Origin: Felixounavirus NRG857CP1 | Strand: one strand, 5' to 3' | Length of the DNA: 64,000 nucleotides | Sequence record: OZ035806.1 | In this document: positions 19,312-34,008 of the stretch, in pieces | Layout: each line of letters starts with the position of its first letter | Numbering within the stretch: position 1 is the stretch's first letter | Notes under the pieces: model-generated | What the model saw: only the letters and a program-made list of their open reading frames with translations | Told to the model about the DNA's origin: nothing | The model's database searches: none | Made by a program: the position numbers and the translations under genes

Positions 19312-20499
19312 ATGGCGGTAGGTGAAATTCAAATTAGTGCCTTGCCTCAAGCAGCCTTACCAATTGACCTTAGTGATATCTTCCATCTTAAGCAGGGTAT
19401 TGAGGATAAGAGATGTACTCTTGAGCAATTACTTGCTCCACACTCAAGCCTAAGAAATAACCCTCATGGTGTTACTAAAACACAAATTGGTTTAGATAAC
19501 GTTATCAATGCTCTTCAGTTAGTTGCTGCAAATAACTTATCAGACGTTACTAATGTAGCTCAGGCAAGAGCAAATCTACAGATTATGTCTTCAGAAGAGG
19601 TTAATAATCTTGTTCAACAGCATATTCAGGACAAGAGCAACCCACATAATACAACTAAGGCACAGGTAGGATTGAGTAATGTTCAGAACTGGACAACATC
19701 TAACCTTTATAACGAAGATGCAGATAAGTATGCTACAGCAAGAGCAGTAAATAACTTGTACAAGGCTGTTCAGGCTTCCTATCCAGTAGGTACTATCCAT
19801 CTTTCCATGAACTCTGCAAACCCTTCTACATATTTAATTTGTGGAGGTACTTGGGAGTTAGTTTCAAAAGGTAGAGCATTGGTTGGTTATGACTCTGACA
19901 CAAGACCAGCAGGTTCTGTATTTGGTGCTTCAACTGTCACTTTGTCAGTTAATAACATGCCTCAACACTCTCACTCTGTGTCTCTTAGTGGTGGTGGTCA
20001 TACTCATAATGCAACTGTGTCAATTTCAGCTTTTGACTATGGAACTAAGACTACCAACTCTTTTGACTATGGAACTAAGACCACTAACACAACTGGTAAC
20101 CATAACCATGTTGGTAGTGGGTCAACAAGTTCTGCTGGTGCTCATAACCACAGATTGACCTATGAAGCAGGCGGTGGCCTATCGGAAAGACCTGCAATGG
20201 TTTGGTCTACAAGGAATGACCAATCATGGTACTCAGCAGATGCTGTCTGTGAAGTAGCTGGTGCACACACTCACTCTTTCAGTGTTACCACTAACACAAC
20301 TGGTAACCACAACCATACGGTCGGTATTGGTGCTCACAGCCACACAGTTGGTATTGGTTCACATACACACAATGGTACTGTAACAGTTTCTTCTTCTGAG
20401 CATACGCATAGCGGGAACACTAATAGTGTTGGTGGTGGACAAGCTTTCAACATTGAGCAGCCATCCTTTGTACTGTATGTATGGCAGAGAACAGCTTAA
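19312..20499 (+). CDS. tail fibre protein (short) with His-x-His repeat tip domain
   Basis: C-terminal HxH repeats (GNHNHTVGIGAHSHTVGIGSHTHNGT, EHTHSGN) typical of metal-binding fibre tips; duplicated FDYGTKTTN motif; C-terminus ...VWQRTA shared with the next gene. Confidence 0.65.
   Translation: MAVGEIQISALPQAALPIDLSDIFHLKQGIEDKRCTLEQLLAPHSSLRNNPHGVTKTQIGLDNVINALQLVAANNLSDVTNVAQARANLQIMSSEEVNNLVQQHIQDKSNPHNTTKAQVGLSNVQNWTTSNLYNEDADKYATARAVNNLYKAVQASYPVGTIHLSMNSANPSTYLICGGTWELVSKGRALVGYDSDTRPAGSVFGASTVTLSVNNMPQHSHSVSLSGGGHTHNATVSISAFDYGTKTTNSFDYGTKTTNTTGNHNHVGSGSTSSAGAHNHRLTYEAGGGLSERPAMVWSTRNDQSWYSADAVCEVAGAHTHSFSVTTNTTGNHNHTVGIGAHSHTVGIGSHTHNGTVTVSSSEHTHSGNTNSVGGGQAFNIEQPSFVLYVWQRTA
20031..20090 (+). 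repeat. 30-bp tandem duplication inside the short tail fibre gene
   Basis: ttttgactatggaactaagactaccaactc followed by ttttgactatggaactaagaccactaacac (26/30 identical), encoding FDYGTKTTNS/FDYGTKTTNT. Confidence 0.9.
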
Positions 20500-20508
20500 T
20501 TTCTTTAC

Positions 20509-20530
20509 AGGGGCTTTATAGCCCCTTTTA
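20509..20530 (+). terminator. intrinsic terminator candidate after short fibre gene
   Basis: stem aggggc / gcccct with loop tttata, followed by tttt. Confidence 0.5.
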
Positions 20531-20545
20531 AGAGGAAAATTTATA

Positions 20546-22927
20546 ATGGCAGATTACAAATTGAGTGAATTAAACTCAATCGATACAATCCGTTCAGACG
20601 ACCTTCTTCATGTCAGGGTTAAAAAGAGACCTGAAATGCTGGGTGATGAAGACCGTCGAATGACCTATCAAGACTTCTTAGCATCTTTTAAACTTGAAAG
20701 ATTTGTTCAGATTACTGGTAGCACTATGGCGGGTGACTTAGGGATTGTTAAGTTACTTTATGGTGGTAAGGTAGTCTTTGACCCAACAGGCTCTTCTGAG
20801 ATTACTATTGGGGATGTTTTAAAGTCTTTTAAAATCAATGCAAATGGCCTTAAACTAACTATTGCTGACGCTTCAAGGTCGGCAACTGTTTATCATACTC
20901 TGAATAAACCAAGCCCTAATGAACTTGGGATGAGAACTAATGAAGAGAATGATGCAAGATATGCAAGGCTTGCTGTGAATAATACCTTTAGAGGTACTCA
21001 AGCTATTCTCTCTGACAATGAAGCCCTTATTGTTAAGAATATTACACAAGGGATGCCACTCTATATTCGTGGTCAAGATGCAGATGGCACTAACAGATGG
21101 TATCTAGGCAATGATAATAAAGGCACAGACAACCTTGTTTTAAAAAACGTTAAATCTGGTGCATACGTAGCGATTTTAGCTAACCTAATCTCTGTGAATA
21201 AATCAATTCAAATCACTGGTCAAGTTCAACCTTCTGATTGGGCTAACTTAGATACTAGATACTTTACTCAGACAGCAGCTAATCAGAGATTTGCGCAGTT
21301 AGCTGGTAATAACACATTTAGTGGTTCTAATATTTTTACTAATTTTGTTGTTAAGAAGAATGCTAATGCTATTACTATTCAAAATGTAGATACAACTGCG
21401 GCTTTGTATATCCAAGCAAGAAAGTCAGATGGGACTAATAAGTGGTACATTGGTAATGACGGTGATGAGAACATTGTAAACATCTATAACTATTTAGCAA
21501 AAACACAAATCTCATTAGGTAACACCATTACCATGAGCAGAACAGTCCAAATTGGTGGTCAAGTTCAACCTTCTGATTGGACTAACATTGACTCTAGATA
21601 CATTCCAGCAGGAACTTTGAGTAATCTTGCTAAACTAAGTGATGTAAACACTTTCAGGTATGCACAGGTTATTAAGCAGAATGGTTCATTGTTACAGCTA
21701 AAGAACACTACACAAGACAGAGAGCTTTACTTTGCTGGTCATAATGCTGATGGTGTTAGAAGGTGGTACATCGGTAATGGGGAACCATCCAACCCAACAA
21801 GATTTACTATCCGCAACGACAGAACTGCAACTACGCTTTATATGCAAGACGATTTCTTGTTGGATAAAACTGTCAGAATTACTGGTCAAGTTCAACCTTC
21901 AGATTTCTCTAACTTAGATGCTAGATATTTCTTAAAAACAAAACTGTTAAACCAATCTTTAATGACAAGGACAGCTAATAGACTGGATGACCCATCATCA
22001 TTCAACAAAGATTGTTCAGGGTTTGTAAGAAACAACGCTATTGAGCAGGGTCTGAAAGATTTAGCCATCCATGTAGCACATTCTGCTGGTATTGCTCATG
22101 CCAGAGGTATTGCTTTTACATATGGGTCTAAAGGTCTTGATGTCTTCACATACGCTTATGGGTCAGATGGAGCATATGTTGGAGAGGCACAGTTGTATTC
22201 AACGGCATTTAAACCAGCCCCTTCAGATATTGGTGCATACACTAAAGCTGAAACTGACCAGAAGATTGCACAGGCAGTAAGTGACTCTACAGACCTTAAC
22301 AAAATCTATCCAGTAGGTATTGTAACATGGTTTAACAGTAATGTTGACCCTAATACGGCACTTCCTGGTCTAACTTGGACGTACCTGAACAATGGTGTTG
22401 GTAGAACTATCAGAATTGCAGCAGCAAATGGTTCAGATGTTGCTACAACTGGCGGTTCAGATTCTGTAACGTTAGCTGTTGGTAACTTACCATCACACAC
22501 CCACAGCTTCTCTGCTACCACTTCATCTTTTGATTATGGTACGAAGAGCACTAATAGCACTGGTGGTCATACTCACTCTGTAAGTGGTACAACAAGTGCT
22601 GCTGGTAACCACGCTCACCACTTAGGTCTGCTATTGGTTAATGGTGGTGATGCTCAGTACGGTTATACAACTGTTAGCAATAACAAGACGAGAACTCTTG
22701 ACTGGCTTGACAGAACTGATAACAAGTTCCCTAACACTAACACAACTGGTAACCATACACACACATGGTCTGGTACTACAAGTAACACTGGTGCTCACAC
22801 CCACTCTGTAGGTATTGGTGCTCACACCCATACAGTTAGTGGTAACACTGGTGGTACAGGTTCTGGTTCAGCATTTAGTGTCACTAACCAGTTCTACAAG
22901 TTAATGGCTTGGGTGAGAACTGCTTAA
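20546..22927 (+). CDS. tail fibre protein (long) with internal ~110-aa repeats and His-x-His tip
   Basis: 793 aa; three repeats of [16 protein letters not shown] and [11 protein letters not shown]-type motifs; C-terminal domain paralogous to 19312-20499 ([54 protein letters not shown], ...AWVRTA). Confidence 0.7.
21060..21930 (+). repeat. three in-frame ~330-bp imperfect tandem repeats within the long tail fibre gene
   Basis: ggtcaagttcaaccttctgat recurs at about 21218, 21557 and 21884, with conserved flanking codons. Confidence 0.8.
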
Positions 22928-23006: not shown

Positions 23007-23201
23007 ATGCCTACAATCCTAGCAATTCTTCTAAAAAATCTAGGTAGCTTCTTCTGGAAACTCATTTTATCCCTTCTAAGTGAATACATGATTGAGAAAG
23101 TGTTCTTTAAGCTTGCAAGATACCTTGCGAGTAAAACAGACACACCTATTGATGATGAGTTCGTAGATAACTTAGAAAAAGCTTTTAAGGGGGAGAAATA
23201 A
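23007..23201 (+). CDS. small hydrophobic protein (holin-like?)
   Basis: 64 aa; N-terminal hydrophobic stretch ILAILLKNLGSFFWKLILSLL; function not established. Confidence 0.3.
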   Translation: MPTILAILLKNLGSFFWKLILSLLSEYMIEKVFFKLARYLASKTDTPIDDEFVDNLEKAFKGEK

Positions 23202-23573
23202 ATGAAGTGGCTAGAGGAAGCTTTTAAAAATAATATTGGTGTAATTGTAGTTGGTATTTTTAGTGTTATTGGGATGTATACCACGATGCAAGTTTCAAGT
23301 GGTAAACAAGAAGTGTCTGTCACAACAAAGTTACAGCAGCTAGATAATTATTCCAAAAGTAACTATTCAGCTATTCGTGATTTACAGTCTGACATGAGAC
23401 TGATTCAGCTAGGGATGGAGAACCAGAAAGTTCAGTTAGAGAATGTTAAGGGTGAAAACGCAAAACTTACCAAAACTCTTGATAAATTCTCTGACAGTGT
23501 GAATAATCTGGCTCAATCAGTATCAGCCCTCCAAGCTATTACTGAGAAGAACACAAAGAATACTGAGAAATAA
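23202..23573 (+). CDS. membrane-anchored coiled-coil protein
   Basis: 123 aa; TM-like IGVIVVGIFSVIGMYTT followed by Gln/Leu-rich helical region; followed by terminator. Confidence 0.35.
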   Translation: MKWLEEAFKNNIGVIVVGIFSVIGMYTTMQVSSGKQEVSVTTKLQQLDNYSKSNYSAIRDLQSDMRLIQLGMENQKVQLENVKGENAKLTKTLDKFSDSVNNLAQSVSALQAITEKNTKNTEK

Positions 23574-23580
23574 AATTTTA

Positions 23581-23612
23581 AGGCTCCTTTTGACGGGAGC
23601 CTTTTTTGTTTT
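23581..23612. terminator. intrinsic terminator between convergent transcription units
   Basis: stem aggctcc / ggagcct with 8-nt loop, then tttttt; lies between plus-strand ORF ending 23573 and minus-strand thyA ending 23612. Confidence 0.6.
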
Positions 23613-24511
23613 TACTTACCTACTGACAAAGGTGCTTCAATCTTTCCTGCATGTTTGTAGTTGTTGATGCCACCAATAAAGTCACTTGCAGTAAGATGTT
23701 TTAAGTCACTTAAGGTGTTAAGTTGTACACCAATCTCAAAAGTAGGTGCATGGAACTCTTCATTGTTCATCAGTTCATAAACCTGCTTCATATGGTTCTG
23801 GTAAATCTGAGTGTCTCCAAAGACACCTATCAAGTATCGTGGAGTGTATCCAGTCATCTTACAAAGAACTTCTAAGATGAAGCCATAAGACGCAATATTA
23901 AACGGAAGTCCTAAAAATGTGTCTACAGAACGCTGATACCATTGCAAATCTACTTCACCTTCGTTGGTGATATAAATCTGAAACAGAACATGACAAGGTG
24001 CTAAAGCCATCGAGTTTGCTGCAATATCTGCTGCATTCCAAGCATTAACAAGCATGTAGCGGTCTGTGATATCACCTTTCATCTTTGTTACTAAGGTCTC
24101 TAACTGGTCTACAACACAACCATTATGACCTTCAAAGTTTCTCCACTGAACCCCGTAGATTCTCCCACCTGCATCTTCTAACCAATCTTGTTCAGAAGAA
24201 TAATTAGAGCTTAACCAGCGTTTAAAATCATCTGACCAGATAGTCCAACGCTCCCCATCATTTTCACCCCAAGTACGATAACGGAGTTCACCAAGTTTAT
24301 TCTCACCATTCAGGAACCATAAAGCTTCCCCAATAACTTGCCGTGTAAACACCTGTTTAGATGTTAAGAGTGGAAAACCAGTACGCATATCAAAACGAAA
24401 CTGTGGTGGAGCAAATGCAGAGATAACATCTCCAGTTCGTGTAGTACGCAGTTCACCAACGGATAAAACATGGTTCAGGATATTTTTGTAACTTGAATCT
24501 GCTTGTGACAT
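23612..24511 (-). CDS. thyA: thymidylate synthase
   Basis: ThyA hallmarks: FPLLTSK, catalytic-Cys region LAPCHVLFQIY, QRSVDTFLGLPFNIASYGF. Confidence 0.9.
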   Translation of the reverse strand: MSQADSSYKNILNHVLSVGELRTTRTGDVISAFAPPQFRFDMRTGFPLLTSKQVFTRQVIGEALWFLNGENKLGELRYRTWGENDGERWTIWSDDFKRWLSSNYSSEQDWLEDAGGRIYGVQWRNFEGHNGCVVDQLETLVTKMKGDITDRYMLVNAWNAADIAANSMALAPCHVLFQIYITNEGEVDLQWYQRSVDTFLGLPFNIASYGFILEVLCKMTGYTPRYLIGVFGDTQIYQNHMKQVYELMNNEEFHAPTFEIGVQLNTLSDLKHLTASDFIGGINNYKHAGKIEAPLSVGK

Positions 24512-33585: not shown

Positions 33586-34008
33586 ATGCAGAAAATGTTT
33601 GTTCACCCAGACATAGCTGACTTTGTGAGAGCTTTGCAGAAGTTGGAAGAACTTGACATTGCTGCTCAACGGGAATATGCTCACCATCACAGGAGAATGG
33701 TTGATATACAACATGAAATAGAGTTGTCTGAAAACTATGAAGATGACTTAAAATGCTCTGTATTTGAGCATATGAAAGATGTTGCTACAGCGAGGCGTAA
33801 AGCTAAAGACACAGTTGCTTTACTAGATTCTCTTAAAAAGAGGTTGCAAAGTGGCACAGACCTGTGTAATCTAGCGTCACTGATTAACGATGTTGAAACT
33901 TCTTGGGATAGGCACTATTATCCACGTTCTGAAAAGACACTTGACTTTTCTTCATCCGAAAACTTAAAATGTTCTAGAAAGAAACTTAACCAACTGAGAG
34001 AGAAATAA
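33586..34008 (+). CDS. hypothetical protein
   Basis: 140 aa ORF, first gene of the plus-strand block. Confidence 0.4.
   Translation: MQKMFVHPDIADFVRALQKLEELDIAAQREYAHHHRRMVDIQHEIELSENYEDDLKCSVFEHMKDVATARRKAKDTVALLDSLKKRLQSGTDLCNLASLINDVETSWDRHYYPRSEKTLDFSSSENLKCSRKKLNQLREK

Follow-up and report, generated by a model that had tools for sequence, protein, structure and literature searches.

Two baseplate tail fibres with T4 gp37-type tips and a cassette-like long-fibre rod in Felixounavirus NRG857CP1

The fibre locus

The DNA analysed here (the window) is a stretch of 64,000 nucleotides from Felixounavirus NRG857CP1 (OZ035806.1), and it is 100% identical to the record OZ035796.1. Two open reading frames on the + strand were confirmed with the precise limits 19312-20499 (395 aa) and 20546-22927 (793 aa). 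A preliminary description had taken both for tail fibre genes, which they are: they represent the orthologues of gp26 and gp27 of Escherichia phage JohannRWettstein (Bas63). The ORFs of 489, 285, 100, 395 and 793 aa match bas63_0023 to 0027 and Felix O1 ORF174 to 184 in order, and the arrangement wedge 2, wedge 1, platform, short fibre, long fibre is the same in Bas63 and Felix O1. A gp9-like role as long-fibre platform was described for Bas63 gp25 (PMC12609058).

19007..19309, + strand: 100-aa ORF, orthologue of Bas63 gp25 by synteny (long-fibre platform, gp9-like); order and length as bas63_0025; phrog_4141, E 3e-62
19312..20499, + strand: gene of the short tail fibre, 395 aa, orthologous to Bas63 gp26 and Felix O1 ORF180; phrog_2097 (tail fibre), E 1e-136
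20546..22927, + strand: gene of the long tail fibre, 793 aa, orthologous to Bas63 gp27 and Felix O1 ORF184; full-length match to phrog_4277, 1208 bits
23580..23603, no strand given: bidirectional terminator-like hairpin at the end of the late structural operon

The N-terminal 130 aa of the short and of the long fibre alike share 94.6% identity with Bas63 and 91-100% genus-wide; the overall identity between the long fibre and Bas63 gp27 is 63.7%. The pair is the known set of short and long tail fibres of Felix O1-like coliphages, the architecture of which was published for Felix O1 in 2010 (PMC3185647), VpaE1 in 2015 (PMC4690856), Sf14 (PMC11821841) and Bas63 in 2025 (PMC12609058). The closest systems, all from the same genus or subfamily, are Bas63 gp26/gp27, Sf14 gp52/gp53, Felix O1 gp76/gp77 and VpaE1 gp74/gp75. 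They have in common with NRG857CP1 the gene order, N-termini of about 95% identity, a C-terminal strand ending in RTA and a domain plan of baseplate-binding domain, rod, collar, HxH needle and head. NRG857CP1 differs from them in its alleles of the rod cassettes and heads, and its short fibre has nine HxH and two FDYGTK units, compared with seven and three in Bas63. In themselves the two fibres are textbook knowledge for the genus and add nothing new; no literature naming NRG857 together with Felixounavirus was found.

A T4 gp37-type tip on both fibres

The short fibre is composed of the following parts, its hypervariable head being located at about aa 281-320.

19312..19716, + strand: N-terminal baseplate-binding part and shaft, aa 1-135; 89-99% conserved among relatives
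19717..19956, + strand: collar, about aa 136-215 (Gp10_C / gp37 collar); Pfam PF21939, E 3e-18
19957..20421, + strand: needle with head, about aa 216-370; of its nine HxH the ascending strand has four and the descending one five
20030..20088, + strand: 30-nt tandem duplication encoding FDYGTKTTNS/FDYGTKTTNT; TRF period 30, 2.0 copies, 93% matches
20422..20496, + strand: C-terminal return strand (...FNIEQPSFVLYVWQRTA); 78-91% conserved

The T4 counterpart of this return strand ends in RLA. The role of the N-terminal part in baseplate binding and as shaft is known from Bas63 (PMC12609058). The collar aligns to T4 gp10 (2FKK, 5HX2) and to the collar of the T4 gp37 tip (2XGF), and the short fibre scores 67.5 bits with PF21939 (Gp10_C), above the gathering threshold of 27. 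The long fibre remains below this cutoff with 21 bits, yet its collar aligns to that of the short fibre.

The C-terminal regions of the two fibres had been described as paralogous and rich in HxH triplets, and the comparison bears this out. GNHNHT, GAHSHT and GAHTHS are all present, FDYGTK occurs twice in the short and once in the long fibre, and both proteins end in RTA. In BLASTP with composition-based statistics the two regions share 35% identity over 233 aa (E 1e-21). The alignment begins in the non-repetitive collar (YPVG...) and is thus not merely an effect of His, Gly and Thr composition. The short fibre has nine HxH triplets where 1.4 are expected and the long fibre six where 0.4 are expected, and none of 20,000 shuffles reached the observed count. 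A common resemblance by convergent low complexity of His-, Gly-, Thr- and Ser-rich sequence, instead of common descent, could draw on the fact that the needle is compositionally biased and internally repetitive. We consider it extremely improbable, as the composition-adjusted alignment takes in the collar and the C-terminal strand, both tips independently match 2XGF and Gp10_C, and the two tips of Felix O1 are 81% identical in DNA.

Common descent of the tips extends to T4 gp37 (PDB 2XGF; Bartual et al. 2010), whose collar, needle and head are homologous by sequence to both fibre tips. Residues 146-367 of the short fibre matched residues 18-228 of 2XGF (phmmer E 5.1e-26), and residues 646-772 of the long fibre matched residues 94-218 (E 7.7e-20), which agrees with the T4-type tip proposed beforehand. 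The T4 tip is a homotrimer with octahedrally coordinated Fe ions, whose chain turns round at the head and runs back to the collar. The short fibre aligns at all seven iron-binding HxH positions of T4 and has two further HxH, at aa 219 and 364; in the long fibre six of the seven are aligned and the last one is missing. The FDYGTK and GIGAHxHTV units are common to the T4 tip and the NRG857CP1 fibres. In contrast to T4 gp37, the NRG857CP1 tip is borne by two paralogous, single-protein fibres joined directly to the baseplate, its needles comprise nine and six HxH layers instead of seven, and its heads are unrelated in sequence to that of T4. Judged by these motifs, the HxH triplets of NRG857CP1 may bind metal ions as well, which the preliminary description had rightly left as an inference. 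In Bas63 the chain-reversal topology of the tip was reported at domain level, and the fibre densities were too poor for side-chain modelling (PMC12609058).

Among relatives, many tblastn alignments of the long fibre, including that of Felix O1, stopped at aa 664 and suggested the absence of an HxH tip. This was ruled out by ORF extraction: every intact long fibre ends in a conserved WV(R/K)TA strand, mostly with four to seven HxH. The alignments stopped because of head divergence and low-complexity filtering and not because of another tip.

Three tandem units in the long-fibre rod

In the long fibre a rod with three tandem units precedes the tip, and the hypervariable head lies at about aa 681-745.

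20546..20935, + strand: aa 1-130, N-terminal region for baseplate binding with the first rod domain; conservation 86-96%
20936..21265, + strand: repeat unit 1 (R1), aa 131-240, variable core aa 141-220
21266..21604, + strand: repeat unit 2 (R2), aa 241-353, variable core aa 261-335
21605..21931, + strand: repeat unit 3 (R3), aa 354-462, variable core aa 361-440
21206..21265, 21545-21604 and 21872-21931, + strand: conserved linker motif of 20 aa in three copies, putative crossover sites
21932..22225, + strand: fifth rod domain (D5), aa 463-560, without detectable homology to the three units
22226..22489, + strand: collar, about aa 561-648; 88-96% conserved
22490..22924, + strand: needle, head and C-terminal strand, aa 649-793; six HxH plus one HH

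The three units of about 110 aa and 330 bp that had been noted before are present, 33-42% identical to one another and with DNA periods of 339 and 327 nt, and Pfam PF20744 (gp37_trimer) matches in three stretches (E 4.1e-52; 174.6 bits at a cutoff of 21.7). A protein self-BLAST returned the identity match only; hence, the units were compared pairwise by BLASTP, which yielded alignments of 34-43% identity with E values of 2e-27, 1e-25 and 3e-20. The similarity that the preliminary description had put forward as refutable, both between the C-termini and among the repeats, was therefore found. On the DNA level the units share 69-74% identity over 90 nt only, and the longest exact repeats measure 25 and 20 nt. 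The protein is not built from these units as a whole: together they make up 42% of it. An HMM of 77 distinct units did not match aa 1-130 or 463-560, so only three repeats are detectable by sequence; the authors of the Bas63 study count five beta-helix rod domains in the long fibre (PMC12609058). The PF03335 Phage_fiber repeat did not reach its threshold of 20, with 17 bits (E 0.006) at aa 756-768 only.

A profile of 48 units matched the pyramid domain of T7 gp17 (4A0T/4A0U/7BOZ; E 8.6e-8 to 1.1e-7). Positions 25-95 of the profile align to gp17 residues 368-436, WYxGxG motif included, which suggests that unit and pyramid domain are related. T7 gp17 has one copy directly before its tip domain, whereas the NRG857CP1 long fibre has three tandem copies with conserved linkers between them, followed by a further rod domain. 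Neither the long fibre protein nor the 48-sequence profile matched T4 gp34 (5NXH) at E <= 1. The likeness to the T4 gp34 rod type, proposed for Bas63 on structural grounds, thus rests on the structural comparison (PMC12609058).

Repeat number and fibre length

Tandem repeats may act mainly as substrates of unequal crossover, which would alter the number of units and hence the length of the fibre. The three units with linker motifs sharing up to 25 identical nucleotides fit such a role, as does the out-of-register transfer of cassettes presented below, which indicates that non-allelic pairing occurs. However, three units are present in every one of the 37 related loci whose long-fibre genes are intact, without any repeat-number variant, no hit spans differing by about 330 nt were observed in 60 records spread over 416 phage records, and the repeat number was reported to be without variation across the genus (PMC12609058). 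The length differences that were found map outside the repeats. They comprise an insertion of about 45 aa in the fifth rod domain of some relatives, indels in the head domains and the number of 10-aa FDYGTK units in the short-fibre needle, which among 27 distinct aligned tips is two in NRG857CP1, three in Bas63 and four in three more distant loci. With at most 25 nt of exact identity between repeats within the genome, intragenomic unequal crossover should be rare. Judging from the description of Bas63, the retracted fibre docks on the sheath, which probably limits the length it can have. Unequal crossover as the main role of the repeats is therefore unlikely.

Cassette reassortment among relatives

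The fibre loci were compared among 27 IMG/VR and reference loci and then among eight independently sequenced isolates. In the 27 loci, and again in the eight isolates, the identity of each unit core was about 60-100% or 16-45%, whatever that of its neighbours. Across the 37 loci with intact long-fibre genes, unit cores, fifth rod domain and head domains reassort independently and show these two classes of identity. All eight isolates carry the long-fibre head of NRG857CP1 (91-100%), yet they differ in their combinations of R1, R2, R3 and D5 alleles. Within the genus, most linkers shared 70-100% identity and a few 55-68%; in more distant loci the values were 52-77%. The amino-acid conservation of the linkers across phages amounts to 75-87%. 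Breakpoints fall in these conserved linkers. At locus L003 the nucleotide identity to NRG857CP1 is 91-100% over most of the region, with isolated bins at 86-90%, and only 46-55% in the core of unit 2 across 21292-21591, with two border bins at 73-78%; this core has been replaced, with borders near 21292 and 21590.

Cassettes were also found out of register. Unit 1 of Alf5/Tribble corresponds to unit 3 of BPS17W1 with 94.1% identity over 290 nt, and unit 1 of Bas63 to unit 3 of LF82P9 with 80.9% over 267 nt.

The variable cores could have arisen by fast point-mutation divergence in mutation-tolerant, beta-rich domains and not by recombination, one of three options offered in the Bas63 study (PMC12609058). 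Being surface-exposed fibrous domains, the cores may tolerate substitutions. We regard this explanation as very unlikely for several reasons. The identities for R1 form two clearly separate classes, about 20-50% and 70-100%, and those for R2 and R3 are for the most part bimodal too, with some intermediates. Cassettes of 99-100% identity adjoin others of 25-45% within one phage pair, and in L003 a nucleotide identity of about 91-100% gives way, at the linkers and within bins of 60 nt, to one of about 50%. Finally, one and the same cassette is found at different repeat positions. An origin of the mosaic pattern in chimeric metagenome assemblies seems hardly credible. Many of the IMG/VR loci do originate from a single metagenome (3300045988), in which several Felixounaviruses occur together, but the same mosaic is present in isolates from different laboratories (Bas63, Felix O1, Z31, KhF2, ASO1B and the LF82/LF110 series). 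Moreover, the long fibres of Alf5 and BPS17W1, the out-of-register pair, each recur at 98.5-100% identity in four to eight or more independent isolates.

In Felix O1-clade phages, the same head segment is present on the short and on the long fibre. The 81% identity between the two Felix O1 genes extends over 270 nt, and at locus L026 short and long fibre are 91% identical over 200 nt; in both, about 70 aa of distal needle and head are nearly identical between the two fibres.

In T-even distal fibres, short conserved motifs including His boxes flank variable segments and serve as crossover points. Motif-mediated domain swapping in these loci was reportedly described by Tetart et al. in 1998 and by Sandmeier in 1994. 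In Felixounavirus fibres conserved short motifs border the variable segments as well. Unlike in T-even phages, shuffling extends to rod domains distant from the receptor-binding head, and the putative crossover motif coincides with the boundary of a tandem repeat, which makes out-of-register moves possible. The Felixounavirus and Mooglevirus fibre papers on Bas63, Sf14, VpaE1 and Felix O1 contain no mention of recombination in the fibre rod.

Megablast matches to Tequatrovirus were rejected as a feature of NRG857CP1. They trace to 47 nt of the relative BPS17W1, outside the window, with 96-100% identity to the His box of T4 gp37.

Proposed mechanism and implications

We are highly confident in the overall reading, that of two Felixounavirus baseplate fibres with T4 gp37-type tips at a locus that evolves as a cassette array. 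Each fibre is expected to form a homotrimer, with a conserved N-terminal baseplate-binding part and, at the C-terminus, a receptor-binding tip of the T4 gp37 type. In the tip, the collar would lead into a six-stranded needle stabilised by metal ions, with three HxH motifs per ion. The needle would end in the small hypervariable head that touches the receptor, from where the chain would return to the collar. Only the long fibre has an added rod, three domains of which are the units of about 110 aa joined by conserved linkers. The trimer architecture and the attachment sites are known from cryo-EM of Bas63 (PMC12609058), a study that also gave the HxH interpretation for the genus. LPS is the receptor for the genus.

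From the sequence patterns we infer that relatives recombine by homology during co-infection: crossovers, located in conserved linkers and conserved segments of the needle, would replace a single unit core, the fifth rod domain or the head independently. As the same linker flanks every unit, cassettes would occasionally land in another repeat position, and the conserved needle would enable the paralogous fibres to exchange heads. The preliminary description had seen in repeats and paralogues a substrate for recombination that can change fibre length or receptor specificity and had suggested comparing fibre loci among relatives. In that comparison rod cassettes and heads reassort, mostly in register and occasionally out of it, and heads are shared between fibres; a change of fibre length by repeat number did not hold.

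A further step, which we put forward tentatively and consider rather doubtful, is that the long-fibre rod is a combinatorial array in which four rod modules and the head reassort among co-circulating phages, with the rod domains under diversifying or balancing selection. Deeply diverged alleles (16-45%) persist and are reshuffled among phages with the same head, so the rod domains would be under selection. If so, candidate pressures on the rod are lateral contact to O-antigen or LPS and the need to evade a fibre-sensing host defence; any function of the rod cassettes is presumed.

Felix O1-like phages are used in Salmonella diagnostics and in E. coli phage therapy, and the similarity of their fibres cannot be reduced to one tree or one identity value, as the head, the fifth rod domain and the individual repeat cores have each had a history of their own. 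Natural junctions for engineered chimeric fibres are marked by the conserved linkers. If rod cassettes affect host range or the evasion of defence, typing of the alleles per cassette would improve host-range prediction.

Organization of the fibre locus

The two tail fibre genes of NRG857CP1 are followed by two small ORFs and a hairpin that closes the operon:

19312-20499, plus strand: short tail fibre ORF (395 aa)
20546-22927, plus strand: long tail fibre ORF (793 aa)
23007-23201: small ORF 3' of the long fibre gene (64 aa), phrog_402
23202-23573: small ORF 3' of the long fibre gene (123 aa), N-terminal hydrophobic segment and coiled coil, phrog_4038
23580-23603: bidirectional terminator-like hairpin, 9 pairs, T-runs on both strands

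Both fibre ORFs have exactly the boundaries assigned in the preliminary description, and every motif quoted there is present. Upstream lie, in order, a 489-aa Baseplate_J protein, a 285-aa baseplate protein and a 100-aa ORF. Phage Bas63 (bas63_0023 to 0027) and Felix O1 (ORF174 to 184) have these five genes in the same order and at the same lengths. The cryo-EM study of Bas63 assigns the first two products to wedge 2 and wedge 1, the third to the long-fibre platform, and the last two to the short (gp26) and long (gp27) tail fibres (PMC12609058). Residues 1-130 of each fibre protein share 94.6% identity with the Bas63 counterpart. The record OZ035796.1 (Felixounavirus NRG857CP1) equals the window at 100% identity and with equal coordinates, and the fibre region is matched by 243 phage records, nearly all of them Felix O1-like and from Escherichia, Salmonella, Shigella and Citrobacter.

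The 64-aa and 123-aa ORFs are kept in Bas63 and Felix O1 and could encode fibre-assembly or membrane proteins. At the hairpin the plus-strand late operon meets the minus-strand genes of thymidylate synthase and dihydrofolate reductase. The GC skew switches sign twice, near 24000 and near 34000. GU169904.1 (84219-86555), a 147-kb record labelled Staphylococcus phage SA1, also contains a full-length Felixounavirus long fibre gene (60.6% amino acid identity, 100% coverage), and two records labelled 'Campylobacter' phage likewise carry one. These records are probably mislabelled or chimeric. The GenBank record of KhF2 annotates a 10-nt 'cos site' within the long fibre coding sequence (L035:3477-3486), which looks like a pattern-match annotation and not a real packaging site.

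Paired tips and the HxH needle

The C-terminal regions of the two fibres are paralogous, as had been proposed (E 1e-21, 35% identity over 233 aa, composition-adjusted), and their alignment begins within the non-repetitive collar. HxH triplets number nine in the short fibre (1.4 expected) and six in the long fibre (0.4 expected), counts reached in none of 20,000 shuffles. The reading as tail fibres with a T4-type tip was borne out by matches to the receptor-binding tip of T4 gp37 (2XGF) in the short fibre (aa 146-367, E 5e-26) and the long fibre (aa 646-772, E 8e-20). The short fibre also matches the C-terminal collar domain of T4 gp10 (Pfam PF21939, E 3e-18; PDB 2FKK, 5HX2).

The seven HxH motifs of T4 bind iron in 2XGF, and each has an aligned counterpart in the short fibre, whose two extra motifs (aa 219 and 364) lie at the collar-proximal end, one per strand. 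The long fibre aligns six of the seven; it lacks one FDYGTK-type unit in the ascending strand and the last GIGxHxH unit in the descending strand. The needles of NRG857CP1 may thus bind metal, with nine layers predicted from the motifs in the short fibre and six in the long fibre, whereas the T4 gp37 tip has seven and the two Bas63 fibres have seven and six (PMC12609058).

A 30-nt tandem duplication at 20030-20088 encodes the two copies of a 10-aa FDYGTK unit in the short-fibre needle; Bas63 has three copies, and three loci that are more distant have four. Among short-fibre tips of Ounavirinae, including loci L001, L015, L017 and L028, the HxH count (7 or 9) shifts with the copy number of FDYGTKxTxx (2 to 4). 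On this small scale, the length of the needle is polymorphic.

Tandem units of the long-fibre rod

The three tandem units of about 110 aa, likewise noted beforehand, make up 42% of the long fibre protein:

aa 131-240: unit 1
aa 241-353: unit 2
aa 354-462: unit 3

They are similar in pairwise BLASTP (E 2e-27, 1e-25 and 3e-20) and account for three matches to Pfam PF20744 (gp37_trimer; E 4e-52). The DNA periods between them are 339 and 327 nt, and as DNA the units share just 69-74% identity over 90 nt; no exact match is longer than 25 nt. With an HMM of 77 distinct units, neither aa 1-130 nor the fifth rod domain (aa 463-560) yielded an additional copy. Sequence repeats are thus detectable for only three of the five beta-helix domains, which were counted on structural grounds in the Bas63 rod (PMC12609058). 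A 48-unit profile matched the pyramid domain of T7 tail fibre gp17 (4A0T, 4A0U, 7BOZ; E about 1e-7) and had a weak match to Mu protein S. It gave no match to T4 gp34 (5NXH), the structural analogue named for the rod in the Bas63 paper (PMC12609058).

Exchange of modules among relatives

The window was compared with 27 related loci (IMG/VR and reference genomes) and eight further isolate genomes (LF82P9, LF82P2, LF82P1, Z31, KhF2, ASO1B, LF110P1 and LF82P5). All intact long fibres in this set contain three units, and their length varies by an insertion of about 45 aa in the fifth rod domain and by indels in the head. The long fibre ORF is shorter in two relatives, with 453 aa (L021:4813-6174) and 541 aa (L023:4755-6380); the gene may be genuinely split there, or a frameshift or sequencing error may be the cause.

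When two phages are compared, the head, the fifth rod domain and the three unit cores are each either about 60-100% or 16-45% identical, and these modules vary without regard to their neighbours. The linkers at the unit boundaries are mostly 70-100% identical within the genus (a few 55-68%) and 52-77% in more distant loci. All eight additional isolates share the long-fibre head of the window (91-100%), yet their combinations of rod alleles differ. Locus L003 agrees with the window in 91-100% of nucleotides over most of the region, with isolated bins at 86-90%, but within 21292-21591 the core is down to 46-55% and the two border bins are at 73-78%; on its downstream side the border of this block falls in the conserved linker. 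Out-of-register similarity was found between unit 1 of Alf5/Tribble and unit 3 of BPS17W1 (94.1% over 290 nt), both long fibre genes recurring in several isolates of independent origin (98.5-100% identity), and between unit 1 of Bas63 and unit 3 of LF82P9 (80.9% over 267 nt). Gradual divergence, the first option in the Bas63 paper (PMC12609058), does not explain these patterns, as it accounts neither for the bimodal identities nor for the sharp breakpoints and the changes in cassette position. An origin of the mosaic in assembly chimeras is ruled out by the isolate genomes.

Heads are exchanged between the two fibres as well. In Felix O1 and close relatives, about 70 aa of the distal needle and head are nearly identical between short and long fibres; the DNA of the two genes agrees at 81% over 270 nt in Felix O1, and locus L026 reaches 91% over 200 nt. 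The window has unrelated heads on its two fibres, and its tips agree in DNA at 75% over 81 nt at best. The BPS17W1-type long fibre tip holds 47 nt (L025:7112-7158) that match the His-box region of T4 gp37 in Tequatroviruses at 96-100% identity and, separately, 156 nt that are 83% identical to a tail fibre gene of prophage Fels-1. Both stretches, absent from the fibre genes of the window, are traces of exchange beyond the genus.

The preliminary description regarded the repeats and paralogues as a recombination substrate that can change fibre length or specificity. Cassette replacement and head exchange in relatives uphold the first part, but a change of length through repeat number does not occur in any intact long fibre. 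Judged from these alignments, the natural outcome is cassette replacement and head exchange rather than an altered number of 110-aa units. The patterns point to homologous recombination between co-infecting relatives as the most likely mechanism, with crossovers that would fall in conserved linkers and needle segments. The rod cassettes may themselves be selected determinants of specificity or evasion, though this is less likely than not.

That fibre genes of T-even phages swap segments through motifs is an old general principle. The architecture of the fibre pair is already known, since it was described for Felix O1 (gp37-like C-termini of gp76 and gp77, 2010; PMC3185647), VpaE1 (conserved N-termini, gp37-like tips and a variable middle in gp74 and gp75, 2015; PMC4690856) and, explicitly for collar, HxH needle, head and rod repeats, in the 2025 cryo-EM studies of Sf14 and Bas63 (PMC11821841, PMC12609058). 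Recombination of rod cassettes is unmentioned in these four papers. The finding on cassettes adds modestly to this picture and does not amount to a new kind of system.
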